A model generated the notes under the pieces. That model did not search any database and was not told the DNA's origin. It worked only from the letters and a program-made list of their open reading frames with translations. Of a DNA stretch of 53,347 bases, positions 2,084 through 35,638 are shown in pieces. Position numbers and translations under genes: made by a program. Position 1 is the first letter of the stretch. Each line of letters begins with the position of its first letter. This DNA is from Nemertoderma westbladi (lineage: Eukaryota > Animalia > Xenacoelomorpha): assembly GCA_032718475.1 (NCBI GenBank), contig JAUCBJ010002816.1:1-53347 (forward strand), read 5' to 3'.

Positions 2084-2126
2084 CTTGTCTGGCAGTCACA
2101 GTTTCGTGGTAGCTGGTATCTTTCAC

Positions 2127-5971: not shown

Positions 5972-6063
5972 CTATAAGAAGGAGGGGGGGGGGGGGGGGT
6001 CATCTTAATTCGCCGAGATGGGATATAAGTCTCCACCCCTACCTATGGGTAACCAGGGCAGGA

Positions 6064-6609: not shown

Positions 6610-8741
6610 TGTTAAACGAACTACCCCGGCCTAACCAATAAAGACACAAAACTGCTCTATTTACTAGATGGGGCAATCAGGAGCGTATAATTACTAATGT
6701 ATGGTTTCAGGTACGGAAAACCACTACTTACCGTTGGATGGCGCTAATCTGCCGTCCGCTAATATATTTTACTTAATTTATACGACTCCTTCTAAATTCT
6801 CGTTCCTTTCTCTACCAATTACTCGATAGAGAGCTAACTGTTCGAATATATGAGCCACGCGGGAATAACCAAAAAATAAACCCGAATCGGCTCCCTAAGC
6901 TGACTTAAAACGAGTGTGAGAGATTTTACACTCAGAGTGTATTCTATAGCCTAATATTACTGTAAATTTGCGCTTACAACTACGTCCTTTCTAATCGCAT
7001 CTAATCGCAATACTGGGGTTCCCTAACGGAATGTGTGAATGTGAGAATATTTAAATAATCGAAAATCGGTACGGCAATTATTTCGGGACTCAAACTTATC
7101 TGCGGCTGGCTTTAGGCCAACAATTTACTGATGCGCGTTGCGTACTGTACTACGATGTGAATTTTGTCCACTAATTCAAATAACCGCCCAGCGTGAATAG
7201 TGTACGGTACTCTAAAATTATTACCTTAACTACCCTCCGCTATGCAGCGTACAAATTCTTAATTTTACTAATTAATTTCAGTCACAAATATGTAACGGCG
7301 TACTAAATACTAAGTATTCCAGAATGCGCAATTCTAAATTATTACGCAACGGGTCACACTAGCAACAGCCTAAGATACCGTATTATTTTCGACCTAATCA
7401 GAAATTAATTACAGTAAGCTAAGAAATAGAAATCAATCAAAGGGAAAGAGCGCCTATCCAAGCATTCGTGATTCATTAGGCACACTTTAGTAACGCACCA
7501 ATCAGCATAACAACAATCGCAATCTACAGTTTAGCTAGCAATTCACAACTCGCAATTCGCAACGTAAAGGACGCAGATCTCTCCCGGCTACGTCTAGGCT
7601 TCCTAACAAACCCAATTCCTGTCCCCCTAATACTACAAAAGAGAGACAAAACCTGGATCATCAGCCCCTAATTACTGAACCGGCGTACCTGACCCACTCT
7701 ACGCTGCAAACTTGCGCGCGCAATAGTAATCCCCCCAATGTTACTTGTCTTTGAATCCTCCGCACTCCCGTCGTCGCTAACCCCCCGATGCGCCCGCCGC
7801 GCTTACCGGTACCCTAGCCCTCCATCAGAATGAGTAGCTACCGTAGCGGCACATGCAAATCACAAAAGTCTGACAGTCTGAGAAATCCCGTAGGATTATT
7901 GTCGAAAGGAATCACATAGAACCATTTACTAAAGGGTAGAAATCATAGTTCCAACTTGTAATTAACAGCGATCATTGAGATTGATTGAGAAACACAAACA
8001 AGAATCAAACAGAAATTGCAAATTAGCGAATCATTGCAAGAAAATCAAAAGGGCAGTAATTTACACAGAAAAACTAAGCATCGAATAATAGTTGAAGGTG
8101 AGCTGTGTGGGGTGTGTGACTAAGCAGAATGTGAGATAGGTAACAATGGAAGTAGACCAATTTATAGGTGATTTGAGAAGGGTGATGCAATCGATCTCTC
8201 ATTGGCTCCCCAATCCGAGCTAACATCAGACCAACCTGGAAGCAGTTAGGCCAATAAGAGAGCCGGATTGTGGGCCTATAGCTCCCTGAAATCGTAAATT
8301 GCCACCATATAAGGTAATTTTCCCGATGCTTAATTTGGCGGTACTAATAATATCATGCACAAATATAAATTTAGCGCAATTATAGAGAAATTAAAACCAA
8401 TAGCTAGCCTCATCAAGGCTAATAACGGCAAGCCCAGATCCAGGGTCCAACAAGGACTTGCTACCCTGGAACTATCTACTTATATCCTATTAAAAAACTA
8501 CATAGGTAGGGCTACATACTATACAAAATGGATGAGTTCAAAATATATGGGCGTTTCAACTTCCTTATCTAAATATCATTGCGCGTTATGCCTTATCTAA
8601 ATAATTATACTGCATCACGGACTAATATATGATACTATATAATGGACTAATATATTATACTGTATAATGGACTAACATTATTATACTGTATAACGGACTA
8701 ATATATTACGTAATGTAGGTACAGCGCCATATACCGTAACA
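6610..8741 (-). repeat. 3' LTR (2132 bp)
   Basis: Near-identical to 22523-24431 (about 20 substitutions by eye); internal ~27-bp tandem repeats at ~8615-8710. Confidence 0.97.
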
Positions 8742-8752
8742 CCGCTCCAAGG
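8742..8752 (-). other. Weak polypurine-tract position (CCTTGGAGCGG|TGTTAC)
   Basis: Short G-rich stretch abutting the 3' LTR on the minus strand. Confidence 0.45.
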
Positions 8753-9244: not shown

Positions 9245-12200
9245 TTACTGACCCGCTCCTGGGTTCTTCGGGCTCGCTCCTCTCTTTCGCCCCCTACCCA
9301 GATACACCAATCGTCCTCCAGTTGACTCTGTTGACGTGGTCCATAAGGCGTCACTCCCCGGAACCGGCGACGATGTTCCCTGAGCTCTGACAGATTCCCG
9401 GCTAGTGCTTCGTCCTCGGCCTCGTCCCAATTGTCGTGCTCCTGTGGTCGCTTCCGCCAACTCTTCCTTTTGCAATTGCACGCGCGCCTTCTCCGACGCA
9501 CCCTGCGCCTTGCGCTACAATCGCTGAGCCTCTATAATCGAGTGATAGTGGTCGTCCTTGATTTGACGCTTGTCTTGGACCTCTCCTCCTGGTTCCTTCC
9601 GTGAGCCTTGAGCTCCAACGGTCGTCGTTGTGGGCGCTGCGGTTCGCTGTTCCTCGATCCTTTGAGCGGTCAATGACCCCACTGGTACGTGAGTCAACAG
9701 GAATTCGTTGCGGTATTGAATAGCCGCCATCCTCCAATCTCCTCGCGCGTGCACCACTTTCATAGTTTCCGAAAACAAACCCTTTGTAATACGGTCGCAA
9801 ATAGCAACAAAGTTCCAAGTGTACTTGTTGTCCATATTTAGTTGTCTGAAGTATTCCCGAACGACTATGACTCCAGTGTTCTGTGGAAGATCTTGAGCAG
9901 TTAGGATGAGCTCCTGATATTGTGGTAGCGACTGTAGATATGGTTCGTACGCAACATGTGACGGGTCTACCGCCCAAAGTCCATATCCCGCCTTAAATGG
10001 TAACCAACGCATCTGCGCTTGAATGTGGTAGTCAGCCACACTCTCCCACTTATCTAGCATCTCCCGAAGTAGGTTAGCGCTATGGTTCTGGAAGGAATCG
10101 TCTCGCAGTTGGCATCTCGCGCTACGATGTCCCTTTACTCCACAATATCCACATTGAGAAATGAAAACGGTGCACGTATGAAACGAATGGTCGGTCTCAT
10201 TGCACCAACGGCAGACCTTATGCGCCGCCTCCACTACAGTGTCGCACGATTTTTGATTGTGCCTTGTGCTGCCGCACAACTTGCACCTACGCGCTTGTGG
10301 AAACCAGGCCCTCTCGTATATGAGGTCTCCAATCGGTTTCGCACTTCCTTCTTTCCCAATGTCTAATACGATGTTGTCCTCTCCAGTTAAAGGTTGTCGA
10401 TCCGGAACAAAGTAAACATCCTCGCCCTTGTCCTCTATCTCCAATATTTCCTCCCGCGTTCGTTCAATAGCAAAATAAATAATAAAAATAAAATCGATAG
10501 CAAAATGTGCTATGAAGCCCATACCAGTCTTGGCAGAGTTGGGATACTCCCTATAAATTCCCATGTCTTGTGCCCATAGCAACAATAGCTTGGTGTCGAC
10601 AAACGGTCTCGGCAATCTATCTTCTAAATCAGTCATGGCGTTGAAGTCACTCTCCAAATCACTCTGGACTCCCGATCCCACCTTGACGTAATCTTGGCTA
10701 AGAATCGCCTCTCTAACCTTCTTGGGTAGCATCCTGGTGTCGATACGCTCCGCTCCGTGCATACCTCCTCGCCTGCATACCTCCAAAATCTGTTCCCTAG
10801 GATCCTTCCCCTTCCGATAATGTGTCGTGATTATGGGCTCCGGTCTCTCTCTATCTGCCCTTACGCGCATAAACACATGAGTCACACCATCGGTCGCGCG
10901 AATTTGAATGCACTTACTAGTCAAGCATTCCTGATGAGACCCTCCTTCATTGTCGTAAAACATCACTCTCCAATCTTGTAGTGATTCCTCCATTTTCCTC
11001 CACTGACGCTGAATCTCGTCGGATGGGGTCCACATGATCGATAGCCTTGTGGTCGTCATATCGGGTGTAAGATCCCTTTCTCCTCAGCCACACCTGGTCT
11101 ACCTCCTCGTCATCTGGGAATGTAACCACCGCGACCCATACCTTGATGTACTTTTCTAACCATCCAAATAACTTGCTCTCTTTTCCCGGAGCTCCAATCT
11201 TATCCAATGTGTCGTAGTCTGTGATCTGCATCGGGACATCACGCAAGAACTTCGCGCATAAAACGTCCCATAGACAGTCGACGTTCCAATGATCCGACAT
11301 CCTCACCATCGGCAAGAATCTAATCGCTTCTCGCGACTCCGGGTGATCTACCAATATCGCAGGTTCGCTACCGTCGGAATAATACACCGGTCGGGGTTGA
11401 GATACGGCCTGTGGAACAAATCCGGTCACTCTCCTCGTCTCCTCTTGATGTCTATCCGCGGTCTTATTATATTCCGCTATCCGCGCTTCGAATAATTGTT
11501 TCGCCTTCGCCGCTCGCTCCTCCTGCCGCAACGCGTCTATGTCGTCCTGATGCTCAGGCGTGAGTGTTCTCGCTCGATGAGGCAAAGTAATGTAGTCCAG
11601 GGACTCGAGAGCTCCAAACCCGCAGGTTTGGTACCCGAGTCCCGTGCCGCTTCGCGCCGCGCCTCTAGGTCCTTGTAGGCTCGGTACAGCGAAATGGCCG
11701 CTGCTGTCTCTATCAAACTGGGTGTCGAACAGGGTTTAATCTCCGTATACGGATCTAAAGTCGTAACGGTCGGCGTAATGGGTCTTGGAGGTCGCTTTCC
11801 GCTGAAGTCGATACTGATCATCGGGTTGCTCATTGGGTAACCTCCCTCGTTATATCTAAGGAACTGATGAGCTTGGCATCGCGTTAATATCGGTTCGGGA
11901 TGTTGCTCGTCCAATCGGTCGGGAATCGCCACGTCTTGTTTGTTCATGCATTCACCACATTTGTAGAACAACTTGTATACACTGAAGACCTTCGACGTCT
12001 CTTGATCCTCGCTGCGAGTCCTCCGATACAGATGCATTCCGTCGAACTGATCTCGGACTGCAGGTAGCGGCTCTTCGTGTCGTAAATACATATTCATGTG
12101 GTACAGCCGCGCAATCTCCTCATCCGGGTCTGCGCTAATGTTGCACACGTCTAACGCGAAATCGTAGGGATACCGAGTGCGATACTCTTTCCGCAAAACT

Positions 12201-12403
12201 TCCATATGGTCCCCCAACGCTCTCATTCTTTCCCTCCTTAATTCTTTATCATAAGCGGGTTTATATTTCCCATTTAGCTCCATCACCGACCTCCCGTGGT
12301 AGTAAACATTCGAATCCTTACATCCCGGTCGGGCAAATGGCAGCTCCGCCTCCTCTCTGGCAGTAAATCCTCTCCGCGGTTGCGCTCTAATTTCCTTCTC
12401 CAT
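9245..12403 (-). pseudogene. Accessory ORF3 of element 2: unknown N-terminal region, DEDDy (WRN/RNase D-like) 3'-5' exonuclease and three CCHC knuckles; two probable frameshifts and one in-frame TAG
   Basis: Overlapping ORFs 11537-12403, 10947-11585 and 9515-11059; after TAG (9515-9517) the frame stays open to 9245. Motifs FYDNEG (ExoI), LPKKVREAILSQDYVKVGSGVQSD (ExoII), FVDT, GMGFIA; knuckles CKLC-H-C, CRWC-H-C, CGYC-H-C. Confidence 0.8.
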
Positions 12404-13099
12404 TATGCGCCGCGTATATACATATATATATCCCAATAAGGTTCTGTTACGTAACTAATTACACTGTGGGTAAATCAGTTAGATGTCGCCGAAGGACAGA
12501 CCTCTTGAGCCCCCCCCCCCCCCCCCCCCCCCGCCTTACAGCAGTTCAGGTTCGACTCTCTAGATCCCGTCTCATTCCTAACTATCCTCTAACATATTCC
12601 CATGCATAGCGCAAAAACTTCGGAGATAAACTGGCCGTGACCAACTCACTTTTTGATGCCCAAACTACTCCCATTACTTGTACTAAACTACAGTAGTTAG
12701 AAAGGACCATAATCTCAATGCTCGACTATACCAAACCCACAGGTTTGATAATCGAACATCACACTTCACTGCAAACTACTAAGTGGGGTCCGTGTACGCC
12801 CTGATGCTACTAACCTTTAGCACCTTAGTTGTACTGCTGGCACCAATCTGTGGCAGTTGCTAAACTCAATTTACACTCCTACGTAATATAGCCGTCACCA
12901 TGGTTTCTAAATGCTATTTTCCTGGCTTCACGACTTTTCAAATTACTGTATATCTATAGACGAATTCTAAAACGTGTCTATACACAGCGTCTGGAATTGT
13001 CTTGTGTTCACTTCTAATTTTTAAAATTTTTTAATTTTCCAAAATTTTGAAAATAAAATTTTATTTGGGGAATGCATACGAAGTGAGTTGCGTCCAACA

Positions 13100-14458
13100 C
13101 TAATTTTTGTTAGAGGCAGGAGACAAATTATAATCTCCTGTCTCGATGCGTGTCTCCTCTAATAACACGATATCTTGGACCGGTCGGTCCAAGGTGTGTA
13201 AACCATTAGTTTTACACTTCTTTGGGTGCGGACACTTGCACCTAATTTTCACAGTGACTGTGCGCACTATGTTTTGCACGTCTGGGTGTGTGTGCAAGAT
13301 GACACCGGTTTCCCAATACTTTCTCTTGACAATCGGTTCGGTTATCAATACGTAATCTCCCCTTTGGAGACTCTGAACCGTTTTGTACCACTTTGTTCTG
13401 GTGGATATGGTGGGAAGATAGTATTCCCGCCAATATTCCCAGAATGTGTACGCTACGAATTGTGTCATTTTCCAGCTCTTACGACTATATAGGTCGGCAC
13501 TAATGGGATCTGATGTCGGCACAAGAAATGCTGGACTCTGCATTAGCAAATGATTCGGCGTTAATGCAACACCGTCTGGCAACATAGCTATCGGCCTCGA
13601 GTTTAGTGTATGCTCGATTTCGATGAAAGCTGTGACCAGTTCGTCATCGGTAAGTTGTATATTTACAGGCAACGTTTTGGCAATGGCCTGTTTTACAGAG
13701 CGAACTAAACGCTCCCAACTTCCTCCTCTCCAAGGACTTTCTGGAGTATTAAATCTCCATTCTATTCTTTGCGGCAAAAGTGCTGCAGAAATTTCCTTAT
13801 TCCGTGCCGCTTTGTGAGCCGCGTTTAACTCGCTGTTCCCTCCGACAAAGTTTGTACCCTTATCGGAGTAGAACGCCTTTACTAGTCCTCTTCTGGCCAT
13901 AAATCTCTTTAAGGCCAGGAGCAGAGATTTGGTCGACATGTCTGCCACACGCTCAATGTGTATGGCTCTACTAGCCATACATGTCAGTAGCAGGCCCCAT
14001 CGTTTGTGGGTCAGCCGTCCACTCTTTGCCTCAATCGGACCAAAACAATCCACCCCTGTGTTCGTAAAGGGTGGGTCATATGCCTGCACTCTCGCTTCCG
14101 GGAGTTCAGCCATCTCCTGTTCCAATACTCTGGCGTTCACCCTCTTGCAAACCAGACAGGCGTCATACATAGTGCCTACTGCCCTGCTTGGCTGCAATAG
14201 AATGAATCGCTGTCTCGCTGCCGACAAACAGTGTAACTTTCCCGCATGATGCAACCTCTTGTGTATATCCCATAGAATCGCTCTTTGCAATTCTATTGGG
14301 TGACTAGGGATTATCACTGGGAACCTAAACTGTGAGTTTATGTCGACAGTCTGGATTTTCGATCTATGACAAATTAAACCCTTATGGATTAATGGACTAA
14401 ATTTAATAGAGAACTGGTCGTTGAGCCGATAATAGATGGAATTCTTTTGGGAAGGCAC
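13100..14458 (-). pseudogene. pol: BEL/Pao integrase, separated from RT/RH by frameshifts (linker fragment 14503-14736)
   Basis: HKRLHH...CLVC zinc finger; DDE triad in VDCFGP, SDKGTNF, GGSWERLV; LNSRP, LTPNHLL and FW..W..EY BEL motifs. Confidence 0.93.
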
Positions 14459-14714
14459 ACATTTGATAATGCTTCAAATGCTTTAATTCCGCTTGATCAA
14501 TTTCATCCTCTGTCAGAGGTTGTTTCGCTCTGAATTCGCTCACTATTAGTGCTCATTTGTTCTCCCAAATGTTTCGAATGTTTTATACAAAGGTACGAAA
14601 TGTATCGGCTTAACCACGCAGTTCTTTTACAAATTGTCAGCCAAGAGGCAGACGAATTTAGTAATTTGTCATAAATACTACATGGCTCTAATGCCAGCGA
14701 CGGTTGTCCGCTAA

Positions 14715-17573
14715 TTAATGGAAGTTTCGAATCCAAACCAAAGGCTCCATTTTGTCGGTCATTTTCATTCCATCACTTACCAATTGTGACTCTGGTTTAG
14801 TCTGTAAGGGTGGTTTTATGTCATAACTTACCCTTCCGGACCTAGTACTCACGTAAGTCTGTTGGTCTGACAGGTCTCTAGGCCGCTCCAATGACTCTTC
14901 AGGCCGCTCCAATGACTCTTCAGGCCGCTCCAATGACTTGAGTTTGGCTTTAGACTTTGACTTAGAGACTTTCTCCACCTTGACTTCTGCATCTTCAGGC
15001 ATCGGATTGGTCACTATCTTTAGTCGCTCTGGCCAATGTTCCTGTGTCCTCGTTAGAAAATCAGGCCCATGCAACCAAAACTCCTGCGACTCTTCCTGAC
15101 AGAATTCCGCCGGCATTGCACCTCTCGAAGTTATGTCGGCCGGGTTCAACACTCCCGGACAATGTCTCCATTGTTCCTTCGTCGAAAAGTCAACGATCTG
15201 AGCGCCTCTGTTGGCCACAAATGTCTTTAGTGCAATATTGTCGGCCGCAATGTATACTAACACTAAGGATGCGTCCGTCCAATAGAATAAGGTCAATGTC
15301 GTGTCTAACTCCTCTGTTATCTGCCTACTTACCTCGACTGAAACTACAGCCGCCTGTAACTCTGCACGAGGGACAGTCATGTATTTGACCGGCATTGTCT
15401 TTGATCTAGAAGTCACAAAAGCCGTCTCAAATTTATCCTGACTTACCTCTCGGCGAAGGTAGGCTACCATACCAAAGCCGGTGTCACTTGCGTCACTAAA
15501 TAAATGGAGTTCGAGATCAGCTGGGAATACCAGCTGATTCGGAAAGTAGGAGCGGGGTACATCTATGTTTTTCAATAGATGCAACTCGGCTTCCCACTCT
15601 CTCCACTGCTTTGTATGTATAGGAGATATTGGTTCGTCCCACTCTAGGTCGGACAACCAAATTTTCCTCATGCACGCTCGTGCCTGTAATATTACTGGAC
15701 TGATAAAGTTCATCGGGTCAAATAGTCTACTTAATGTCGATAAGCAAATTCTCTTAGTCAAAACTTTATCTGGGCTACTGGGCTCAAATCTAACTCTTAC
15801 CTGGAATTTATCCGTGTTCGGATTCCAAGCGAGTCCCAGTACTCGCGCCATGGGGATGGGTTCTACCCCCAATTCTATGTCTCCGCTCCCGCGATCCTTT
15901 ACCGGGAACGACTCTAATAGGGCCTCCGAGTTCGTAGTGAACTTGGTCAGAGGAAATCCCCCTGTAGCCAAGCACTCTTGCAGGCCGTGAGCCACTTCTA
16001 TGGCTTGTTCTGCCGCGTCCTTGGACACCAATCCGTCGTCCATATAGAAGTTTCTCAAGATGGACTCGATTACTTCTACTGGATACTTACCAATCTGGGC
16101 TGTTGCCGTTTTCTTTAGAACAAACAGCGTGCCGTTTGGACTATCGCGGGCGCCAAATATCCTAACGTACATTTGGTATGTAACCACTGGGCCGGATATG
16201 TCTTCATTCTCGTACCAGAGAAATCGAAGGCTATCCTGGTCTGCCTTACAGGCTCTTACCTGGTGGAACATCGCCTCGATGTCACAAGTAAACACGAATC
16301 GCCGCTGTCTAAAACGCAACAGTATTCCTATCAAATAATTATTCAGGTTGGGACCATCCATCAACTCTGAATTCAGGGACATACCTCTATAGACTGCTGC
16401 GCAGTCGTTGACTACTCGGACTTTGTCAGGCTTGTCAGGGTGAGTCACATAGTGGTGTGGGAGGTAATAAGTCTGGTCTGTCACTAAGACAGGGTCCTCT
16501 ACCTTCCCAGCAAATCCCTTGGCGAAATAGTTGTTGATCTGGGCGCAATACTTCTCCCTAATGTCCGGATTCTTTAGCAACCGAGCCCTTACTCCGTTCA
16601 ATCTTTTTAAGGCTAAGCTGTAGTTGTTCTCCAACTTAGGAGGTTGTCGACGCCACAACATTCCAACTTCAAAATGTCCAGTCGGTAGCAAACGTATGGT
16701 GTCTTCCATCATCTCCAGCGACCGTTTCTCATCAGTGGACATGGCTAGGTCATATCCACCGGGTTCCATTGCGTCCCTATCCAGCCATTCGACGGTTCTA
16801 GCTCCTGTCTCGAGGTCCTGGCGTATCAATTCCTTCTGTAGCTCCTCCTCACTGTATTGGAAAATGTCGAGGTCGCGATATTTAGCCACCTGACCCTCCA
16901 CTATGTCGGTATAAGTCAAAACGTTACTCAGATAAGTAGCGTGGGCCGCTGAACCAGACCCACGGGTCTGATAACAGTAGTCCTTGGGTTCACTATCTGT
17001 CCGGTCGTTGTGAAGTGGTTCCGACAACCTAACATTATCGGGAATCAACTCCTCGTCTGACTCGCTAAAGTCACTATAGTGGTCAATACAGGTTCTCCTA
17101 AACTCGTCTATGTCTGGTAGTTCTACTAACGGTGGTTGAGTTATAGGCTGTAATTCGTCGTATCTGTCTATTGGCTTGTCGCCACCTGTAAACTCATAAG
17201 ACATGGGTACTCTTGTATACCAACCTAGTATAGTCCTATGGGCATGTGGTCCATTGACATGCGGCTCAGCTGGTCTCGTTTCCCATATTTGGTGTGCGAT
17301 CAGCTGTTCTGCACCAATCAACATAGAAACATTCCTATAACCTACCTGGTGTCTCGGTATCCTGAGCTTGTCAAAATACTCCTGTGCTATGGGACTCATC
17401 GGCGGCACCTTACCTAACTGCCTGCCGAATCCCTTCATAGCTAGACACTTAAATCCGTCCAATGGCAAAGGTCTTCGTTCTTGTCGAGTGTGTTGGTCTC
17501 TCGGAAGTAGGGAGTCTAGTTCTACCGAAATTCTGTGTCCCTTGAGGTCTCCTACTCCATGCATAGACTTCAA
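14715..17573 (-). pseudogene. pol: BEL/Pao protease C-terminal part, reverse transcriptase and RNase H
   Basis: YLPHH, KVRVVNDCAA, SLNSELMDGP, DIEAMFHQV, FGARDSP, NFYMDD; RNase H FSDAS, PRAELQAA, WTDAS, NPADITSRG; 21-bp triple repeat at ~14880-14938. Confidence 0.95.
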
Positions 17574-17597
17574 CTCTATTTGGATTTCCTCGGCGTC

Positions 17598-20500
17598 CTA
17601 GAAGCTAGAAACGGCTCTCGCCACTTCCTCGTCGATATACGATAATGTGGACGCAGTGTCCAACATCACATATATTCGCTTAGATCCCTTATCGCCAGTA
17701 AGTTTCACCGGAATCACGCTAAATATTTCCGACGTGGCCGATGATAAATACGTCCGCGCGCTGGTCGATGAACTATCCGCGGTGAAACCTTGGCAGGTCA
17801 CCTCTCTTGCGCTCAACTCGCCATCCTCGTCCGACGAACCTGGTTGATAACCATCGTCCTGAATGCCGGTATACGTATTTCTTCTTATCGATACGGGTTC
17901 TTCGCTCCCCTTCCTGTGAGGATTTCGCTGTAAGTAACGGTCCGTTGGGGTGTGAAAATCCGCATGTAGCAACTTGTGATGTAGTCTGCCGCATTCCATA
18001 CATCCGTCCTTACTGTTCGGGCACTGCCGCCGTACATGACCTGGCGCAAGACATGCCCAACAGGTGTCCAACGTCCGCACTTGAACTCTTCTCTGTTCCG
18101 AATTTAATTCTTTGAACCGTCTGCAACTATCTAACTTATGGTCGTCAGATCTTACCTCCTTTAGTAAACAGTATTGGCAACCTACAAATCCATCCGGCAA
18201 CTCCTGTTGCTTTAACCTAGGTCTATCTAACCGCTCACCTGACCATACTCGCGAGTCTGATCTAAAGGCTGGGGTAATCGAATTATATCTGTCTACTGAG
18301 TTAAATGTCACAGTGGTCCTGTCATCGTCAAAACTTACCATAGACTTACCGGTAACAGGTTTAGACTCTCTCATATTCTCCTCTGAGAAGTTTGATTTCA
18401 TCTCTGCTACTGCGTCTGTGGCTATCATGTCATGAATATGCTGAAGTGTCAACACCTCACCTTGACCATCCAACTTATTCTCTAATTTGCGCCATTTCTG
18501 TCGGTAACGCATGTTTAAACGTCTTATTACGCTCTTTAAATCTTCGGCGTGATCACCATGATGAGGTAGATTCACCATCCTCAAGATGTCCAATGCGTTC
18601 GAAATAGCGTTCGCTAAGTTCAACAGCTCTAACGGAGTTGTAATCCTTCTGCCCTTACCCAAGTCTTCCACTATCGACTGTGCCATCTTGGTTTTATTCC
18701 CGTAGATGTCGCTAAGCGTCTTCATTGCCAACTCAAATGCCCTTTCATTGCCGACGAAGTTATCAGCAATGGCTCTAGGTTCTCGATGGAGCATCTGAAG
18801 CAAATAGTTGAACTTCTCGTTGGGAGTAAAGGTGCTGTTGGTTAGCTGCTCGTCGACATAGGTTTTAAACGTCCTCCAATGCTTATGGTTGCCCATAAAC
18901 TTCTGGGGTTGTTGCGTCGGCAGTCCTTGCCTAGCAGCAAACTTACCTATGTCCCTAAGGATTGCGTCGTTCCGGGTTAACAAATGGTTTAGTTCCGCAG
19001 GGTTGTTAAGTCTGGTCCTTTCCCGGGGATTGAGACTTACCTGCTCCGCGTCCGTCCTTCTTTCCTTATAGTTTCGGGACTTCTGACGTCTCATGTCTTC
19101 CTCTTCATCACTTGATTCGGTGTCATTCCTTAGCGCTTGCGATGGTTTGCGCACCGAGGCCCTGACCCAGGCGTCCTGAATAAACTTTTCGGCTGAATTT
19201 TCGAAATCGGGATTATGGATATTTGGGACAGGCGTCCTTACCAGAGGTCTATGTGGTATAGTCTCCTCCGATATGCGTACTCGTTGACTAGGTTGGACTT
19301 TATCTAACTCAGGCCTGCTAGGATTAGAATTACTTCTTACCTGGGCTGCTTCCTTTAACCGTAGGTTGCTAAGCATGTCCGTTATAGGTTGGATGTGCGG
19401 CGATATAGCTTGCGCTAAACTAGCACTTAACTCATCCCTCGTAATAAATTCCTGGCTAGGGTTCTGTTGTATAGTCGGCTCTATCTGAGTAATCCGCTGT
19501 CTCTCATATGATCCCTCTTCCGGTTTAACCCGGAAGTTCTCCGTCGAACTGGGTCGGCGCTCCGTCCGCGTATTCCAAACCCGCGGGTTCGGTTCGCCCA
19601 ATACTCGGCCCGTCAGAGTTTCTCCTCTAAACTCTTCGTTGTCTCGTTCGGTATGTAGTGGTGCGGTGCGCTGATACGCTGGATTCTGCGCGATAGGTGA
19701 AGCACTAATACCAATTGGCGTGCGATATGTAGAGAACGGTTTAGCGATCCGTGTACTCGTAATAGCTGGACCGTGTATAGGAATTCTGATCGTCGTCGAC
19801 TCGCGTATGGTCGGAGTTCTCGCTTCCTGTTCGGCCTTCTGCAGTGCGAACAGTTCTCGCAACTCAGTCCCTACACTTGCCCCACATTCTTCGATCATTC
19901 GCATCCCCTTCTCGGCGATTTCATTCGCCTTCCTGGTCCGTTCCTCGCTCTCTAGGTTTAATCTCGCACTTTCCAACTGCGCCAGTTTACGTTCTTCTTC
20001 TTCCCTCGCTCGTCTCGCTGCGCTCTCTTCTTCCACACGCGCCTTTTCTTCATACAACGCTTGTCGCTCTTTCTCGATCTCGAGTTCGCGTTCCTTGCAT
20101 TCGCGTTCAAGTTCGAGTTCGCGTTCCTTCTGTTCGCGTTCGAGCTGGAGTTCGCGTTCTTTCTGTTCGTGTTCAAGTTGGAGTTCGCGTTCCTTCTGTT
20201 CGCGTTCCGCTCGCTCACGCTTACCCTATCTTCCAACTCGCGCAACTTTGCGTCTAACTTACGTGTTCGCTCCCTTTCCCGCTCGGCTTCCTTCCGTGCT
20301 TCCGATGCACGCAAAACTTCCGCCTGTTGTTCGTCCAATCGGCGTCTTCTCTCCTCCGCCGAATTGTGAGAAACAAGGGATCTAGCACATATAACTTTAC
20401 CTCGCGCGTGACTAACCTGGGAATTGCCACTGCCTCTAGATGCGTCGTCGGGTGGAGTTAACGTTCTCAGTTGGATATTCTCCGTCGTCGGTAGCATCTG

Positions 20501-21367
20501 ACCCGGTACCACCACTCCACTCTGCATCAGCCAGCTGGTAACTTCCCGCTGATAACGGCGCTCCTCCTTATCTTGCGTCTCTTCTCGCTCCACTAAATCT
20601 CTCGACTCTGCGTCACTCACCTGAGTCGCCTGCGCTTGTGATGCCCATAGCAGCCAGTTCTCCGTCCTAACTCGTCGGAATCGCTCCGATAACGTGCGGT
20701 GCTCCAACAAGGCTGCTAAAACCCTGTCGTAAATCCTCGTCGCCACGTCGTTCGACTGAGACTCTACTGCCTTCTTCGCTAGGACTGCAAGCTCCTCCGT
20801 CTGGTTGAATAACGCTGAGTTGTATCCTCTTCTAATCTCTACTAACCCTTCCCTTCCGATGTTCGCTGAGTCGGCTAACATCTTCCTTACCTTGTCCGCC
20901 GTCCGGGTTATATGTCCGGCATGCGCGCGAAGTTTTTTCTTTATCGCGATATCAAGTTCTCTCTCGCTTACCTGACTCACACTTGGTGGACTTGAAGGAT
21001 TATTTCTGGAACTATGGGTACTCCTTTTAGCCGCTGGGACCACGGCACTTACCATACCCACAGGTCTGGAAACCGGGCTCCGGGCTCTCGCTTCTGCTAC
21101 ACTACCCTCCCTATCACTCACCTCTGGTTGGGTTGCTGTACAATCCTTCCTTACAGTAGCGGTAGGGGATCCTAATACTATTACCTGAGGTGGTTCTTCT
21201 TCCTCACTAGTTACTGTCTCGTCCTCCTGTTCACTTACGTCAGCATCACTCGCTGCGTCATCATAGTCGGCATTGTCGTCAACAGTAATATTAACGCTAT
21301 CGTCAGTCGGCGGTTCTGCCGCCGTCTCATAGCTGTCCTCTAGTGCCTCCTTCTCTGAGGCACTCAT
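17598..21367 (-). pseudogene. gag: BEL/Pao gag and aspartic protease active site; frameshifts at ~20225 and ~17610
   Basis: EREQKERELQL coiled-coil repeats; KFMGNHKHWRTF capsid-like region; three Cys/His knuckles ending CMECGRLHHKLLH; protease motif VMLDTAS. Confidence 0.93.
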
Positions 21368-22522
21368 AGTCTAAATAATATTTGCCTTCCGGCAAAAATA
21401 TATCTCGCAAAAGTTCGAGATATATATATATATAATTTAATCGAAAATACGATCAAATTATTTGTCAAATATCCAATTGTCCAAAATGTCAAAATAAATT
21501 CGCAATGCAATATTGTGAATTTAATGGTGTATAGTTATAGCAAATACCGGTATAATATTTAAACAAAATATTATTATATAGTTATTATATAGTATTTAAA
21601 TACCGGTATGACACAAATAATTTTTTGAATCTAATACAAAATATTCAAAATAAACTTGCCACCCGAATATTTCTAATTTTACATAGATAACTCTAATCCA
21701 CGCAATTTTAATTTCAAATATTATATGTATCCACTAGCGCGTGGCTACATCTTCGGGTTGCGACTCTCTCTCTCTCTCTAACTCGAGCGATTCAAAAACC
21801 CATGGTCGGCTAAACCTAACTATCCTAACTAATAAATTGAGTTCACCTTCGCAGTTAAACAACCGATAATTTTTTACTGCTTCCACAAACACAATGGTGC
21901 CAACATAACAACTAACCTTGTTTGCTGTGAGATTCCACGTCCGCGTCCAAAGTTTCAGTCCTTTCGCTGATTGCAAACCGAACCCGCAGACCCACACGAA
22001 CCCCAAACTCAGAAGCTCCGTCTTGCCATGTATCTCCAGATGGTATAAAATAACTAAGCGGTTATCCAACATACCGGTACAAAACTCTAGATTTTATTAC
22101 AAAATAATTTTGACCAAAACTGAATTCTCACAAACCTAGCTAAAAATTTCAAAAAACTTACTAATTACGGCCTGCCCTAACGGCCTAAGGAACCGCTGTA
22201 TTTGTGATTAGTAAACGCACTACCGTATATCCACTGTACGCAATACAGTAAGTAAAACAGTACACCAACCTAACAGCCTAATGAATACTGTGTGCGGTAC
22301 AGCAAAACAAATGTATTTTCTACTTGTATGCAGTAACAGCAATCAGCCTAATGTACTACTGTACTATTGTACGCGACCAGTGAATACAGTAATCTAACTT
22401 AACAGCCTAAAGAATACACTTGATGTTCTACCGTACGCAGTACAGTGCCTAATACAGTAATCTAATTAGTACTTTCTGACTTTACTGTACGCAGTACAGC
22501 AAAACACAAAAACGTCCTTTAC

Positions 22523-24431
22523 TGTTAAACGAACTACCCCAGCCTAACCAATAAAGACACAAAACTGCTCTATTTACTAGACGGGGCAATCAGGAGCGTA
22601 TTACTACTAATGTATGGTTTCAGGTACGGAAAACCACTACTTACCGTTGGATGGCGCTAATCTGCCGTCCGCTAATATATTTTACTAAATTTCTACGACT
22701 CCTTCTAAATTCTCGTTCCTTTCTCTACCAATTACTCGATAGAGAGCTAACTGTTCGAATATATGAGCCACGCGGGAATAACCAAAACAATAAACCCGAA
22801 TCGGCTCCCTAAGCTGACTTAAAACGAGTGTGAGAGATTTTACACTCAGAGTGTATTCTATAGCCTAATATTACTGTAAATTTGCGCTTACAACTACGTC
22901 CTTTCTAATCGCATCTAATCGCAATACTGGGGTTCCCTAACGGAATGTGTGAATGTGAGAATATTTAAATAATCGAAAATCGGTACGGCAATTATTTCGG
23001 GACTCAAACTTATCTGCGGCTGGCTTTAGGCCAACAATTTACTGATGCGCGTTGCGTACTGTACTACGATGTGAATTTTGTCCGCTAATTCAAATAACCG
23101 CCCAGCGTGAATAGTGTACGGTACTCTAAAATTATTACCTTAACTACCCTCCGCTATGCAGCGTACAAATTCTTAATTTTACTAATTAATTTCAGTCACA
23201 AATATGTAACGGCGTACTAATTACTAAGTATTCCAGAATGCGCAATTCTAAATTATTACGCAACGGGTCACACTAGCAACAGCCTAAGATACCGTATTAT
23301 TTTCGACCTAATCAGAAATTAATTACAGTAAGCTAAGAAATAGAAATCAATCAAAGGGAAAGAGCGCCTATCCAAGCATTCGTGATTAATTAGGCAAACT
23401 TTAGTAACGCACCAATCAGCATAACATAACAACAATCGCAATCTACAGTTTAGCTAGCAATTCACAACTCGCAATTCGCAACGTAAAGGACGCAGATCTC
23501 TCCCGGCTACGTCTAGGCTTCCTAACTAACCCAATTCCTGTCCCCCTAATACTACAAAATAGAGACAAAACCTGGATCATCAGCCCCTAATTACTAAACC
23601 GGCGTACCTGACCCACTCTACGCTGCAAACTTGCGCGCGCAATAGTAATCCCCCCAATGTTACTTGTCTTTGAATCCTCCGCACTCCCGTCGTCGCTAAC
23701 CCCCCGATGCGCCCGCCGCACTTACCAGTACCCTAGCCCTCCATCAGAATGAGTAGCTACCATAGCGGCACATGCAAATCACAAAAGTCTGACAGTCTGA
23801 GAAATCCCGTAGGATTATTGTCGAAAGGAATCACATAGAACAATTTACTAAAGGGTAGAAATCATAGTTCCAACTTGTAATTAACAGCGATCATTGAGAT
23901 TGATTGAGAAACACAAACAAGAATCAAACAGAAATTGCAAATTAGCGAATCATTGCAAGAAAATCAAAAGGGCAGTAATTTACACAGAAAAACTAAGCAT
24001 CGAATAATAGTTGAAGGTGAGCTGTGTGGGGTGTGTGACTAAGCAGAATGTGAGATAGGTAACAATGGAAGTAGGCCAATTTATAGGTGATAGCTAGCCT
24101 CATCAAGGCTAATAACGGCAAGCCCAGATCCAGGGTCCAACAAGGACTTGCTACCCTGGAACTATCTACTTATATCCTATTACAAAACTACATAGGTAGG
24201 GCTACATACTATACAAAATGGATGAGTTCAAAATATATGGGCATTTCAACTTCCTTATCTAAATATCATTGCGCGTTATGCCTTATCTAAATAATTATAC
24301 TGCATCACGGACTAATATATGATACTATATAATGGACTAATATATTATAATGTATAATGGACTAACATTATTATACTGTATAACGGACTAATATATTACG
24401 TAATGTAGGTACAGCGCCATATACCGTAACA
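22523..24431 (-). repeat. 5' LTR (1909 bp) with a ~229-bp deletion relative to the 3' LTR
   Basis: Alignment by eye; the segment matching 8172-8400 is missing at ~24090. Confidence 0.97.
24037..24087 (-). promoter_or_regulatory. Putative LTR core promoter (TATAAA plus initiator-like CACATTC/TTAGTC)
   Basis: CCTATAAATT on the minus strand at ~24078-24087, with initiator-like motifs ~30-45 nt downstream; same site at ~8160 in the 3' LTR. Confidence 0.45.
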
Positions 24432-24890
24432 TAATGTAATGTAATGTAATGTAATGTAATGTAATGTAATGTAATGTAATGTAATGTAATGTAATGTAAT
24501 GTAATGTAATGTAATGTAATATAATGTAATGTAATGTAATGTAATGTAATGTAATGTAATGTAATGTATTGTAATGTAATGTAATGTAATGTAATGTAAT
24601 GTAATGTAATGTAATGTAATGTAATGTAATGTAATGTAATGTAATGTAATGTAATGTAATGTAATGTAATGTAATGTAATGTAATGTAATGTAATGTAAT
24701 GTAATGTAATGTAATGTAATGTAATGTAATGTAATGTAATGTAATGTAATGTAATGTAATGTAATGTAATGTAATGTAATGTAATGTAATGTAATGTAAT
24801 GTAATGTAATGTAATGTAATGTAATGTAATGTAATGTAATGTAATGTAATGTAATGCAATGTAATGTAATGTAATGTAATGTAATGTAAT
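24432..24890. repeat. (TAATG)n microsatellite, right part
   Basis: Almost pure array, read directly. Confidence 0.98.
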
Positions 24891-24925
24891 TAAAATTAAT
24901 ACGAATTAAATTAATTATAATATAT

Positions 24926-25425
24926 TTAATACGCTACACGGTGAGATTTCTGCACTACATCTTTCTCAGCAACTTTAATTCCACACACACCCAGATTGTG
25001 GACGATAACCTTAACTGATGTCTTGTTCGAGAGTCTATAAACGAATATACTAGTGGGTGCAGGACAGAATTTCCGAAGTAAAACTCCGCTACCAACTGAT
25101 CCACCACGGAACTGGTCGCACCTGGTATGGTGGCGCGGTACCCAGAACATGTGGGCGATTATGTTGGCGTCTCTTACTCGTAACCGTCGTGAAACCATCC
25201 ATATCCTTAATGTTCTCCCGGTATGTTAGCGAATCAGATTGTCTCGGACGTTTAGCACTGCCGCCACTAACAAAACTACCAGCGCCGGTGGAACTGCGGT
25301 TCGGTATCGCACGGGGGGCGTAACTGACGGCGAAGACGACAGGCTACCACGCCACCCAACCTTTGACTGAACGTCAGGAACAACCCTATTGGTAGGTTCT
25401 GCGCTACCAACATTCTGAAGCACAA
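24926..25425 (-). mobile_element. Frameshifted fragment of a CR1/L2-like LINE ORF1
   Basis: Joined frames give DGFTTVTSKRR...VLGT...SIFVYRLSNKTS...I...LGVCGIKV...SH, the usual lead-in to the ORF1 RRM domain. Confidence 0.6.
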
Positions 25426-25960: not shown

Positions 25961-26740
25961 ATTCGTTAATTAAGTTGATTACGTATTACGTAGTTGATTA
26001 AGTTGTATAAAACAGCATTTTGTCTACAGTCCTTTATTGGAAATTAATTATTTTCTAATATAAGATTTTTTATTAGATTTATCATGATTTATAAGAGCAT
26101 TTTCAACCTGCCTCTTAAAAGGATAGTAATATATAGTTTTTAATTAGTTCAATAGATTTGCTTTAAGAAATGTGTTTTTAATTGATCTAAACGTAATTAA
26201 CTTATTGAAATGCCCAGTCTCATAGCTCCCTCCTTCCTTGGCATGCTTGCCTAGCTTGGAAGGGGAACCAGTCCAACCACAAACCTCACCTCTACTCAAC
26301 GGCAGCATTGTAATGAGCCAGACTAATAAGTCAGCTTGTTTATTGTTTTTAGCTTACAAAATGATTGGCCGAGTACTTAATCATGATTCTTTAGTATAAT
26401 TAGCGGATCTAGGACACTTCCCCCCCGGACACTTCCCCCCCGGACACTTCCCCCCCGCCCAAGTAGGACACTTCCCCCCCGGACACTTCCCCCCCCCGCC
26501 CAAGTAGGACACTTCCCCCCCCCGCACACTTCCCCCCGCCCAAGTAGGACACTTCCCCCCCAGTTAAAGTGTTAAAATTAATCTGGGTGCATCAAAGCAA
26601 TAAACAAAAGTTAAAGATGGTTACAGGACAAGTTGTATCTAGTTTTTTCAAAATTATAAAAGAAACATTTTTATAGTCAACTTTTGTTTGTTTTTCTTTT
26701 AATTCCTTTAATTCTTTTAATTACTTTTAATTTCTTTTAA

Positions 26741-26930
26741 TTGGGGGCTGCCGCCCCCAAACCCCCGCTTCTTTTGTTGGGGGCTACCGCCCCCAAACCC
26801 CCGCTTCTTTTCTTGGGTGCTGCCGCCCCCAAACCCCGGCTTCTTTTGTTAGGGGCTACCGCCCCCAAACCCCCGCTTCTTTTCTTGGGGCCTGCCGCCC
26901 CCAAACCCCCGCTTCTTTTCTTGGGGGTTA
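26741..26930. repeat. 36-bp tandem repeat, about 5 copies, each with a GGGGG-CT(G/A)CCG-CCCCC hairpin
   Basis: Read directly. Confidence 0.9.
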
Positions 26931-27002
26931 TCGCCCATTCATTGTGTCAAGTACAATGCACACATCTCCAACCAGACACTATATAACATTGGAGGTGTCT
27001 CA

Positions 27003-27290
27003 TTGGTTCCTCCAAGCTTGACACTAGAACAAAATCGCCTCCGCTTTGCAGGACATTGCTTTCGCCGTGAGGACCAGCCAGTGCATAATCTTGTACTTTG
27101 GCAGCCTCATGGAGTGAATAAGCATGGTGGACAGCCCATGACTTTCTTGAGACGCATTTTAAAGGACACTGGCCTTAAAGATGCGGATGATCTAGCAAAT
27201 GTCATGGGTGATAGGGAGTTGTGGCGGTGCAATTTTGTTGACAAGCCGGCACAGCATTCTTAAAAATGCAGCTGCAATGCAGCATGCCGA
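27003..27290 (+). mobile_element. 3' end fragment of an RTE-like LINE
   Basis: RLRFAGHCFR...LVLWQP....GG.P.TF...I.KD......A..M.DRELWR matches the C-terminus of RTE ORF2. Confidence 0.75.
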
Positions 27291-28629
27291 TCCTAGTATC
27301 CTAGCCCCCAGACCCCGGCATTTCCCTGAGTGCCCGTGGTGAAAGACTTAAGACCACTTTGAAATAATTAATTCATGTTTGTATCATCAGATAATTAATT
27401 GACTAAGCCTAAAGTAGGAGCTGTATTGAATGTTAACCAATTTAATATATAAATTACTACAATATTATATCATTCAACAAAATCCTATTAAAAATATTGC
27501 AAGTAACCAGGAAATTTAATATGTAGTGTGTATAATATCTATATTGTATGTATAGTAGTAATATGTATATCAATATGTAATGCTGAACACAGAATACAGA
27601 TCGACGCATGTCGATTTTACCCTGGAGAGGTATAATTTTGATTGCAACAATAATATTCATCCCCATCTGCTACAATTTGAAGAAGACTATTACATAATAA
27701 TACCTATAATTAAAACAATTAATTATTATAATTCTATAGTTTATAAAAACAGTATATCATTCCGGGGATGGAATTTATAGGTCATCTAATATAATTAATT
27801 GTTTAAAGATTAGCAAACAATACGATGTAATTGCATTGATAAAACCCATAAATAAAACTTGGATATAAAATGTAAAATCGGGATGCAAAAGATCACTTTC
27901 TTAGCTACAGTACGAAAGGAAAATTGGATACAACTTATCTGGATACAAGCGGTCCGTTTACCTTACAAAATGAAAAATACGAATGTGCGAAGTTAAGAAC
28001 AGTCGGGGGGGAAGTGTCCGCGGGGGGGAAGTGTCTGTGGGGGAAGTGTCCGGGGGGGAAGTGTCCTACTTGAGCGGGGGGGAACTGTCCGGGGGAAGTG
28101 TCCGAACACCTAATTAGCTAAATAATTTCGTTGAGGTGTTGACATGATAAATTAATATCTCATTATCAATACTATCGGCATAAGGTAAGTTTTATATTTC
28201 TTACAAATTGGGTCGCCTCCACGCCTAAAATACTTAATAATATTATTTTATGAGTTTAACATGTTACCAATAACATGAGTTTATTGATTTCTTTGTTGGT
28301 TGAATAAATTAAATTATATGCGATCTTTAATTATTTTTGCATGAAATTTGTCCTGTTTGTACAGTATATCTGTGAATCGCTTCCAGATGTATTTTGTGTT
28401 ATATTAAAAATAACTATAATAACATGTTACTTTTAAAACACAAATTTTATGTTAATAACTCTGCCTTTCATCAATCCTGTTTGCGCCTTTGGGTTGGGGT
28501 GGTGCAGATTAAGAGGGGGGGGGGGGGGGGGGGGTGGGGCTTTCCCTCTCTTTGATTTACTGGTGTTTGGTTAAATTTCTTAGATACCGAGTTTGTGATA
28601 CGGTAGATTCGCTCAATATTAATCTGTAT

Positions 28630-29502: not shown

Positions 29503-30213
29503 CTAAAAATAATGCACAGTACAATTAATTGAATTAGATACTGCATAAGATTAAAGGATGTGATGTTAGACAAACACGACTTTAGAGGGATTGTGATATT
29601 AATATGAAAACAATAAAATAGGAAATGGGGTCTTATTCCCTCAGATACTACCTAGCCTTTAGGGCCACTTGGGCCACTGTTAGTACTCAGGCACTAAGGC
29701 CTATTAAAAAAACGACTAGCCCTATACCTTTATTGTTGGCGCCTTACATGAAAGAACTGCACCTTTGGGATGGGTAATGGAAGCTTGGTTGTATTCATAA
29801 AAACTATTAATTGCTTTTGTTTCGAGTTCTCACACATTTTCTTTGGATTCATATAATGAATCCAACATTTGGATACTTAGGAGTGCTCTCTGAATCACTA
29901 GAGGGAGTCCAACGGCTCCTCAGCTCATTAGAACAGGCTGCATCTAATGGTAGACTTTTTGGTAATTTCGAGGTGGACCAAAATTTAGACAGTTAGACTT
30001 TGATCATATGAACATACACTCTAAGGATGATGGTGTGCTTGAGCATGTGGATGACTAGTCCTAGCTAGAACCAGGGATCCCAAAGTCAGGTGAAGATCTT
30101 TGAATTTGCATTGAAAGGGCTGTCCAGGATGAATATTTAGTAATAATTAAACTAAAGCGTTATATTATAGAACCCTGTGATCAACCTTTACCTCTACTTT
30201 TTAGTACACCCGT

Positions 30214-33200
30214 TCATATTTCTTACCATTGTTGTTCAACCTTAGTATCTCCACTCATATTTCTTACCATTGTTGTTCAACCTTTGTATCTCCACTCATA
30301 ATTCTTACCATTGTTGTTAAACCTTAGTATCTCCACCACTCATATTTCTTACCATTGTTGTTCAACCTTTGTATCTCCACTCATATTTCTTACCATTGTT
30401 GTTCAACCTTAGTATCTCCACTCATATTTCTTACCATTGTTGTTAAACCTTAGCATCTCCACTCATATTTCTTACCATTGTTGTTAAACCTTAGTATCTC
30501 CACTCATATTTCTTACCATTGTTGTTCAACCTTACTATCTCCACTCATATTTCTTACCATTGTTGTTCAACCTTAGTATCTCCACTCATATTTCTTACAA
30601 TTGTTGTTCAACCTTACTATCTCCACTCATATTTCTTACCATTGTTGTTCAACCTTAGTATCTCCACTCATATATCTTACCATTGTTGTTCAACCTTAGT
30701 ATCTCCACTCATATTTCTTACAATTGTTGTTCAACCTTAGTATCTCCACTCATATTTCTTACCATTGTTGTTAAACCTTACTACAGTATCTCCACTCATA
30801 TTTCTTACAATTGTTGTTCAACCTTAGTATCTCCACCACTCATATTTCTTACCATTGTTGTTAAACCTTAGTATCTCCACTCATATTTCTTACCATTGTT
30901 GTTAAACCTTAGTATCTCCACTCATATTTCTTACCATTGTTGATAAACCTTACTACAGTATCTCCACTCATATTTCTTACAATTGTTGTTCAACCTTAGT
31001 ATCTCCACTCATATTTCTTACCATTGTTGTTCAACCTTAGTATCTCCACTCATATTTCTTACCATTGCTGTTCAACCTTAGTATCTCCACCACTCATATT
31101 TCTTACCATTGTTGTTCAACCTTAGTATCAGCCACTCATATATCTTACCATTGTTGTTCAACCTTAGTATCTCCACTCATATTTCTTACCATTGTTGTTA
31201 AACCTTAGTATCTCCACTCATATTTCTTACAATTGTTGTTCAACCTTAGTATCAGCCACTCATATATCTTACCATTGTTGTTCAACCTTAGTATCTCCAC
31301 TCATATTTCTTACCATTGTTGTTAAACCTTACTACAGTATCTCCACTCATATTTCTTACAATTGTTGTTCAACCTTAGTATCTCCACTCATATTTCTTAC
31401 CATTGTTGTTCAACCTTAGTATCTCCACTCATATTTCTTACCATTGCTGTTCAACCTTAGTATCTCCACCACTCATATTTCTTACCATTGTTGTTCAACC
31501 TTAGTATCAGCCACTCATATATCTTACCATTGTTGTTCAACCTTAGTATCAGCCACTCATATATCTTACCATTGTTGTTCAACCTTAGTATCTCCACTCA
31601 TATTTCTTACCATTGTTGTTAAACCTTAGTATCTCCACTCATATTTCTTACAATTGTTGTTCAACCTTAGTATCAGCCACTCATATATCTTACCATTGTT
31701 GTTCAACCTTAGTATCTCCACTCATATTTCTTACCATTGTTGTTAAACCTTACTACAGTATCTCCACTCATATTTCTTACAATTGTTGTTCAACCTTAGT
31801 ATCTCCACTCATATTTCTTACCATTGTTGTTCAACCTTAGTATATCCACTCATATTTCTTACCATTGCTGTTCAATCTTAGTATCTCCACCACTCATATT
31901 TCTTACCATTGTTGTTCAACCTTAGTATCAGCCACTCATATATCTTACCATTGTTGTTCAACCTTAGTATCTCCACTCATATTTCTTACCATTGTTGTTC
32001 AACCTTAGTATCTCCACTCATATTTCTTACCATTGTTGTTAAACCTTAGTATCTCCACTCATATTTCTTACCATTGTTGTTCAACCTTAGTATCTCCACT
32101 CATATTTCTTACCATTGTTGTTCAACCTTAGTATCTCCACTCATATTTCTTACCATTGTTGTTAAACCTTAGTATCTCCACTCATATTTCTTACCAATGT
32201 TGTTAAACCTTACTACAGTATCTCCACTCATATTTCTTACAATTGTTGTTCAACCTTAGTATCTCCACTCATATTTCTTACCATTGTTGTTCAACCTTAG
32301 TATCTCCACTCATATTTCTTACCATTGTTGTTAAACCTTAGTATCTCCACTCATATTTATTACCATTGTTGTTAAACCTTAGTATCTCCACTCATATTTC
32401 TTACCATTGTTGTTAAACCTTAGTATCTCCACTCATATTTCTTACCATTGTTGTTAAACCTTACTACAGTATCTCCACTCATATTTCTTACAATTGTTGT
32501 TCAACCTTAGTATCTCCACTCATATTTCTTACCATTGTTGTTCAACCTTAGTATCTCCACTCATATTTCTTACCATTGTTGTTAAACCTTGGTATCTCCA
32601 CTCATATTTCTTACAATTGTTGTTCAACCTTAGTATCTCCACTCATATTTCTTACCATTGTTGTTCAACCTTAGTATCTCCACTCATATTTCTTACCATT
32701 GCTGTTCAACCTTAGTATCTCCACCACTCATATTTCTTACCATTGTTGTTCAACCTTAGTATCAGCCACTCATATATCTTACCATTGTTGTTCAACCTTA
32801 GTATCTCCACTCATATTTCTTACCATTGTTGTTCAACCTTAGTATCTCCACTCATATTTCTTACCATTGTTGTTAAACCTTAGTATCTCCACTCATATTT
32901 ATTACCATTGTTGTTAAACCTTACTACAGTATCTCCACTCATATTTCTTACAATTGTTGTTCAACCTTAGTATCTCCACTCATATTTCTTACCATTGTTG
33001 TTCAACCTTAGTATCTCCACTCATATTTCTTACCATTGCTGTTCAACCTTAGTATCTCCACCACTCATATTTCTTACCATTGTTGTTCAACCTTAGTATC
33101 AGCCACTCATATATCTTACCATTGTTGTTCAACCTTAGTATCTCCACTCATATTTCTTACCATTGTTGTTAAACCTTACTACAGTATCTCCACTCATATT

Positions 33201-34934: not shown

Positions 34935-35638
34935 CTGATATTTGTTCAGGTGGAGACATGGTTCAAATGAAAAAATATATACAATAAACTGTATATTATT
35001 GACTTAAAAATATATAAATAGTTAAGATGATTAAATGCATGCAGCCAAGGCCAGGCTTATTATAGTAATAGATATCGCCTTGTATATAAGATTATTACGA
35101 TCGAATACAGTAGGCCTAACAGTACTAAAATTTTATAATCAAGAATAACAAGGGAATAGATTTATTTTTCTTGCTGATGAGTAATTTTTCTTTCCTGTAA
35201 TATGTAACTTATTCTACAAAATTTCCTTTTCAGACCTCCACTAGAGTTAACCATACCACATGTAGATTTTATTGGTAATGTGTTGATGTTGAGGCATACT
35301 GTATTTATAACTGTGCCGCTAACGGTAGGCTTCATAGTGTAGTTCATATGAAGTGGAGGCCCTTTATGTAAATATCGCATACGATTCAATACATTATTGT
35401 TCACTTACATAATAAGGCTGCTATCGTTTGGAGTGTCTTAGCGAAAAAATTGTGACAAAGGTGCCAAAAGTATTTTGTGAGTCTATGGGTATATAAATGA
35501 CATAAATCCCATGCTCCTATTGCATAACATTTATTTATTGATGGAGAAATTGACATAATACTCTACAAGGCAAACAAAGTGTAGAGTAGGGGAAAAAGGA
35601 TCGAAAATAGCCCTACTGCCAGAATAATTTAATTAACT

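Follow-up and report, generated by a model that had tools for sequence, protein, structure and literature searches.

A BEL/Pao retrotransposon of Nemertoderma westbladi that probably uses its own RNA as the primer of reverse transcription

The primer of reverse transcription in a BEL/Pao retrotransposon of Nemertoderma westbladi is likely to be the RNA of the element itself and not a tRNA. The element lies on the minus strand, at 24431-6610 (17,822 nt; 17.8 kb), of contig JAUCBJ010002816.1 (assembly GCA_032718475.1), of which we analyzed a stretch of 53,347 nucleotides, hereafter termed the window. This reading is based on the complementarity between the site that follows the 5' LTR and a stretch inside the LTR, on its register with the LTR edge, and on covariation within and between families.

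RESULTS

Structure and classification of the element

The 5' LTR (24431-22523; 1,909 nt, TG...CA) and the 3' LTR (8741-6610; 2,132 nt), both on the minus strand, align with 98-99% identity, and the match ends exactly at 22523 and 6610. The 5' LTR lacks 229 nt that are present only in the 3' LTR (8399-8171, minus strand), just upstream of the TATA box; this stretch contains CCAAT-like motifs, and the length difference is probably due to a deletion in the promoter of the 5' LTR. Identical 5-base flanks at both ends of the element represent the target duplication, which is weak evidence because the insertion occurred inside a 5-base microsatellite (6060-6609 and 24432-24930).

The coding part, on the same strand, comprises a gag region (17598..21370) of two frames with DUF1759 and zinc knuckles, a region with the protease end, reverse transcriptase (YMDD) and RNase H (14715..17597; Peptidase_A17), and an integrase (13100..14473) with DUF5641 and an Integrase_H2C2 match below the cut-off. 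Stops and frameshifts interrupt the frames of this copy, the gag region included, and a break separates the integrase from the reverse transcriptase-RNase H part; as judged by eye, the acidic motifs of RNase H appear to be present (frame P0001). Between the integrase and the 3' LTR there are a further 3 kb of coding sequence in three frames (9515..12454, minus strand). Its last piece contains three CCHC-type knuckles and had no homologue among 5,019 candidates, a Pfam search with the three pieces returned no match, and inspection by eye revealed no resemblance to an envelope. A short purine-rich tract (8742..8748, minus strand) adjoins the 3' LTR. The LTR contains a TATA box (24080..24085, minus strand), an initiator-like motif (24042-24037) and, as predicted from GT-AG motifs, an intron of 174 nt (23552..23725, minus strand); a search for a canonical poly(A) hexamer in it gave none.

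The element belongs to BEL/Pao (Belpaoviridae), as judged from the gag-PR-RT-RH-IN order of its domains, the BEL-specific Pfam matches (DUF1759, Peptidase_A17 and DUF5641) and the LTRs, which have TG...CA ends and are flanked by the target duplication. The 120 best listed homologues share 37-43% identity and all contain the Pao domain PF05380; the named ones among the matches listed are mostly from corals, echinoderms, molluscs and fish. The chromovirus phylogeny of Ty3/gypsy, to which the Tf1/sushi lineage belongs, does not apply, the domains being those of BEL/Pao. According to the ICTV, BEL/Pao elements are primed by tRNA-Arg or tRNA-Gly at an 18-nt site, their LTRs measuring 0.2-1.2 kb and their genomes 4.2-10 kb (PMC8742986). 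The window element differs in that it lacks the 18-nt site for a tRNA 3' end, possesses LTRs of 1.9-2.1 kb and a total length of 17.8 kb, and carries the extra 3' coding region; it was thus assigned by phylogeny and domains despite its primer site. Its family (21300-24431) shows great abundance and diversity in runs X1 and X3, where 3,077 and 2,143 contigs, respectively, were placed on it, and the viral contig collection searched contained no relatives.

Several other repeats and genes are found in the window. Positions 1-2745 (minus strand) may hold a second, truncated retroelement with gag-like low-complexity frames and no Pfam match, and a satellite with a 43/45-nt unit (2746-5500) adjoins it. 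Inverted repeats of 69 nt surround frames with a DUF7869 match at 35638-39160, which is likely a DNA transposon. Two inverted-repeat elements and a 41-nt tandem array occupy 26410-28095, 30082-34068 and 43932-44944. Two long unbroken frames encode methyltransferases, an O-methyltransferase and a class I SAM-dependent enzyme (41143-42186, plus strand, and 47839-48750, minus strand).

The site next to the 5' LTR is complementary to the LTR

An earlier note on this DNA, made from the sequence alone, had reported that no TGG primer site follows the 5' LTR, and the end of the LTR-pair alignment at 22523 bears this out. The predicted primer-binding site, which is not of the tRNA type, is located directly at the LTR edge (22513..22522, minus strand). 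A search of the whole window recovered the exact complement of 22522-22513 that the note had pointed out, namely, the predicted self-primer at 23483..23492 and its copy in the 3' LTR at 7564..7573 (both minus strand), and nowhere else. The duplex of 10 bp abuts the LTR edge and can be extended by an 11th, G-U, pair, also as described. The duplex has the length and the distance from the LTR (at least 10 bp at 0-5 nt) by which a published screen predicts self-primers (PMC6317226). ARAGORN found 0 tRNAs in the window, and Rfam yielded 0 matches in 6500-24500. A search for a primer assembled by splicing within the window's own LTR came up empty, the best candidate pairing being 8 bp long and implausible.

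The note had put the probability of a chance match at about 0.2%. For the fixed 10-mer this estimate is close, since its complement was present in 7 of 5,000 dinucleotide shuffles of the LTR; by the same test, 8 of 1,150 start positions in the 5' untranslated region gave at least 10 bp. The estimate does not hold for a wide search that includes offsets of 0-6 nt and spliced forms, in which 13 of 200 shuffles equaled the match, so that the match in the window is by itself suggestive only. This last figure speaks for chance; that the site begins with GT speaks for another simple explanation, raised in the note, by which CA|GTAAAG at the LTR edge serves solely as a splice donor. We regard both as highly improbable in view of the two sets of data that follow.

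One base pair of the duplex flips within the family

Contigs from two DNA sequencing runs of one organism were placed on 22470-23560 (1,091 nt), and all sites that vary at 25% or more were tabulated. Among the 40 variable sites there is a single C>G change (22516; 6 and 3 contigs in the two runs) and a single G>C change (23489; 10 and 7 contigs), and these two positions face each other in pair 7 of the duplex. G-C is consequently exchanged for C-G, which preserves the pairing. For any one variable site, a partner that also changes, and to the complementary letter, is expected by chance with a probability of approximately 1.2%. The contigs are short and the two variants never occur together on one of them; the variant shares also differ (99% and 61% versus 48% and 81%), these being depth shares and not allele frequencies.

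A mere splice donor does not account for the fact that the change at position 7 has a counterpart 970 nt away, and the compensatory flip argues likewise against chance. It also bears on the two competing partners of the primer stretch that are absent from the note, which are located inside the LTR at 22896..22904 and in the arm of a local hairpin at 23507..23513 (both minus strand), the latter being able to take up part of the primer. None of the 40 variable sites is a matching variant at the corresponding positions 22900 or 23513.

The folding of the leader gave a different picture. In three unchanged leader stretches of 1.1-1.6 kb the pair probability of the proposed duplex was at most 0.05 in all three, and folding of the window copy preferred the site at 22904-22896, with a pair probability of 0.75 in one of the three. 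As modeled, the folding of this copy counts against the proposed duplex; predictions over more than 1 kb are unreliable.

Most relatives without a tRNA site contain the same complement

A total of 217 relatives were retrieved, consisting of 125 loci and 92 loci from host contigs in genome bins. Among L079-L125, BEL/Pao elements of animals turned up in many genome bins of bacteria and archaea, which represents host contamination. A pair of repeats around the polymerase was detected in 54 of the 125 loci and was absent from 71. We retained 18 elements in which the 3' end of the LTR was readable in both copies, 5 of 32 later loci (near-duplicate tRNA-type copies and loci that lack repeat pairs were dropped) and the window element, giving 24 elements. 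Their LTR ends were set by LTR-pair alignment, with adjustments by eye in L025 and L091.

A Watson-Crick complement of 10-15 bp in the element's own LTR, beginning 0-4 nt past the LTR end, was found in 12 of the 13 elements that lack a TGG site and in none of the 11 tRNA-type elements, for which the best complement was 6 bp. The set was put together when the pattern was already known from inspection by eye, so that the comparison is not blind, and the corresponding Fisher p value (~1e-5) is optimistic because the elements are related. The exception, L081, has no exact complement and shows one mismatch as judged by eye. In control searches the observed length was reached, depending on the element, in 0-13 of 200 shuffles and with 0-2 of 23 swapped sites.

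The contrast between the two classes of elements is difficult to reconcile with chance. It also disagrees with the splice-donor explanation, given that the sites of several relatives are not donor-like and start 1-4 nt from the LTR. Another explanation, to which we give hardly any credence, is that an internal tRNA fragment primes and the LTR match is incidental. Such priming by half-tRNAs exists in some Copia lineages, as stated in the available excerpt of PMC6317226. Against it stand the 12 site sequences, which are all different from one another and each match their own LTR, as well as the family-level change of pair 7, which is mirrored in the LTR. ARAGORN produced three tRNA-Thr calls in the 217 loci, which were uninformative.

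The same data can be read as a conserved structural stem with a role in packaging, dimerization, poly(A) read-through or splicing control, the true primer being something else. Covariation demonstrates pairing and not priming, and U5-leader stems are present in retroviral leaders. We nevertheless consider a stem of this kind quite unlikely, because the pairing stops in every case at a distance of 0-4 nt from the LTR edge, the place at which a primer has to terminate, is missing from all 11 elements with a tRNA site, and coexists with no alternative primer site. Moreover, an uninterrupted run of 10 or more Watson-Crick pairs, as found in 12 of the 13 elements, would be unusual for structural stems. 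Priming by the element's own RNA thus remains the preferred reading, and the covariation that the note had proposed as a check on it is seen both across families and in the flipped pair of the window's family.

The primer of most relatives is split by a predicted intron

The note had missed a feature of most of these relatives. In 10 of the 12 elements, the full duplex requires the excision from the LTR of a predicted GT-AG intron (67-511 nt), and the best unspliced pairing is 6-9 bp; a contiguous, ready-made complement is present in the window element and L005. A consensus-like donor motif occurs in all 13 LTRs of the elements that lack a TGG site versus 3 of the 11 tRNA-type LTRs. In the close relatives L082 and L085, two differences in the primer site are each matched at the predicted end of exon 1. 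A poly(A) hexamer is located 0-93 nt past the primer in 8 of the 12 elements.

A blind scan of 85 further loci detected at least 11 bp across an intron in 15 of them (one is a low-complexity artefact), compared with 11 of 255 local shuffles; 19 of the 85 loci, many of which have no LTR, gave no candidate. A complement scan that was unconstrained proved too noisy and was discarded.

In L004 (6465-6864) a TATA box lies 36 nt ahead of the donor; exon 1 may therefore have some 6 nt and the primer may consist of the first bases of the RNA, as in Tf1. An exon 1 of a few bases was rejected as a general rule, since it fits only this one of six elements with a recognizable TATA box.

Phylogeny of the relatives

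A FastTree phylogeny of 64 reverse transcriptase-RNase H rows was built from which unlabeled loci were left out. It was rooted at the midpoint, with rows from BEL/Pao only and no named reference elements, and L016, L023, L028, L041, L043, L050, L061 and L078 were labeled by eye. Twelve tRNA-type elements split from a branch of 52 rows that contains all 32 intron-type elements, the 4 contiguous ones and a group of 4 tRNA-type elements. The contiguous forms are scattered in the tree and thus probably have separate origins. The four tRNA-type elements (L011, L020, L062 and L075) group together with support within this branch, to which all self-primers belong; either tRNA priming was regained there or self-priming arose more than once. 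The window element falls among the BEL/Pao rows on a long branch (1.17) and has no resolved sister; the host range of the relatives is consistent with the Sinbad/Sparrow/Surcouf (Sailor) or the Suzu clade.

DISCUSSION

The inference of the earlier note that this BEL lineage primes itself is supported by the complement found across families and by the flip of pair 7. From these sequence data we infer cleavage, splicing and priming, which would proceed as follows. Transcription would start at approximately 24055-24040, as judged from the TATA box and the initiator-like motif, about 570 nt upstream of the primer, which would thus lie inside R. This is consistent with the distance of approximately 560 nt given in the note, since 603 nt separate the TATA box at 24085 from the downstream 3' end of the complement. 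In most relatives a predicted intron in R would divide the primer and splicing would join its halves. In the window's family the primer would be ready-made and downstream of the predicted intron, the end of which (23725-23552) lies 59 nt upstream of it and leaves it unsplit. The RNA would then be cut just 3' of the paired stretch, after 23483 (between 23483 and 23482), probably by the RNase H of the element, on the model of Tf1. The 3' end so formed would prime minus-strand DNA across the remaining ~960 nt of R-U5, and the poly(A) site would need to be downstream of the cut.

Plus-strand synthesis would copy the primer back into the site in each cycle, which would account for the pure Watson-Crick pairing, for flips of a pair in one step and for the presence in DNA of a complement to a spliced junction. 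As a speculative advantage, a split primer would make a working primer only in the spliced 5' repeat. The long 5' tail on the primer is a difficulty for this model, namely, how plus-strand copying would stop.

The primer may also act in trans, in that a short spliced and polyadenylated RNA of the 5' LTR or of a solo LTR is trimmed and anneals to a separate genomic RNA. The poly(A) hexamer that closely follows the primer in most elements fits this route, as does the folding of the window copy, which disfavors cis pairing over 960 nt, and the intron could persist without splicing of the genomic RNA. The route requires an extra trimming step, for which we know of no precedent, and the LTR of the window lacks the canonical hexamer. 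The model for Tf1, as given in the available excerpt of PMC7175516, is also one in cis. We consider priming in trans rather unlikely; it would still be free of tRNA and makes up about a quarter of our confidence in the RNA of the element as primer.

Priming by an element's own transcript has been shown for Tf1. The available excerpts of PMC7175516 and PMC4600332 describe a primer formed by the transcript's first 11 bases and released by an RNase H cut, and in Tf1 cDNA the site forms a single-stranded 3' end (PMC11042837, available excerpt). Tf1 and Tf2 of Schizosaccharomyces pombe, Tj1 and the Tf1/sushi group of Ty3/gypsy likewise have no tRNA site, and the window element shares with them some 11 bases of its own LTR transcript that are complementary to the site, as well as the need for a cut 3' of the paired stretch (PMC7175516 and PMC4600332, as excerpted). 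It differs in belonging to another superfamily, BEL/Pao instead of Ty3/gypsy, and in that RNase H cleavage, shown for Tf1, is only predicted. Furthermore, the primer of Tf1 consists of the first bases of the transcript, whereas that of the window element would be internal, as the note had also suggested and as judged from the motifs that place the start, and that of most BEL/Pao relatives is split by a predicted intron. We judge it probable that the window element, standing outside the Tf1/sushi group, nonetheless works like Tf1 in that its own RNA is the primer.

By a sequence criterion that also picks out the window element, self-priming has been predicted for Tcn1 and for the TAR/Houba/Osr-1 lineage of Ty1/copia. 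These are plant and fungal-related lineages, and splicing is not mentioned in the available excerpt of that article (PMC6317226). A keyword look-up in the available text of three BEL/Pao papers (PMC554778, PMC3118150 and PMC6238403) retrieved no mention of primer-binding sites or tRNA. We found no report of self-priming or of a splice-built primer in BEL/Pao in the openly accessible literature searched.

In a broader version of this reading, which we favor with somewhat less confidence than the use of the element's own RNA, a large branch of marine and vertebrate BEL/Pao elements has replaced tRNA priming by a primer that the host spliceosome assembles from two pieces of the LTR. A working primer would then exist only in the capped 5' repeat, the spliced junction would be rewritten in each cycle, and the window's family would be one of several in which the primer became ready-made independently.

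A site that is not of the tRNA type would explain the failure of primer-site finders on such elements. The exact predicted junctions and cut sites supplied here can be tested by RNA sequencing. These elements would also be predicted to evade silencing in which tRNA fragments target the primer site. If the reading is correct, self-priming would have had a further independent origin among LTR elements, and the start of reverse transcription would be tied to splicing, a link that we did not find in the literature searched. The textbook and ICTV view of BEL/Pao as tRNA-primed would then be overturned for an apparently large part of the family.
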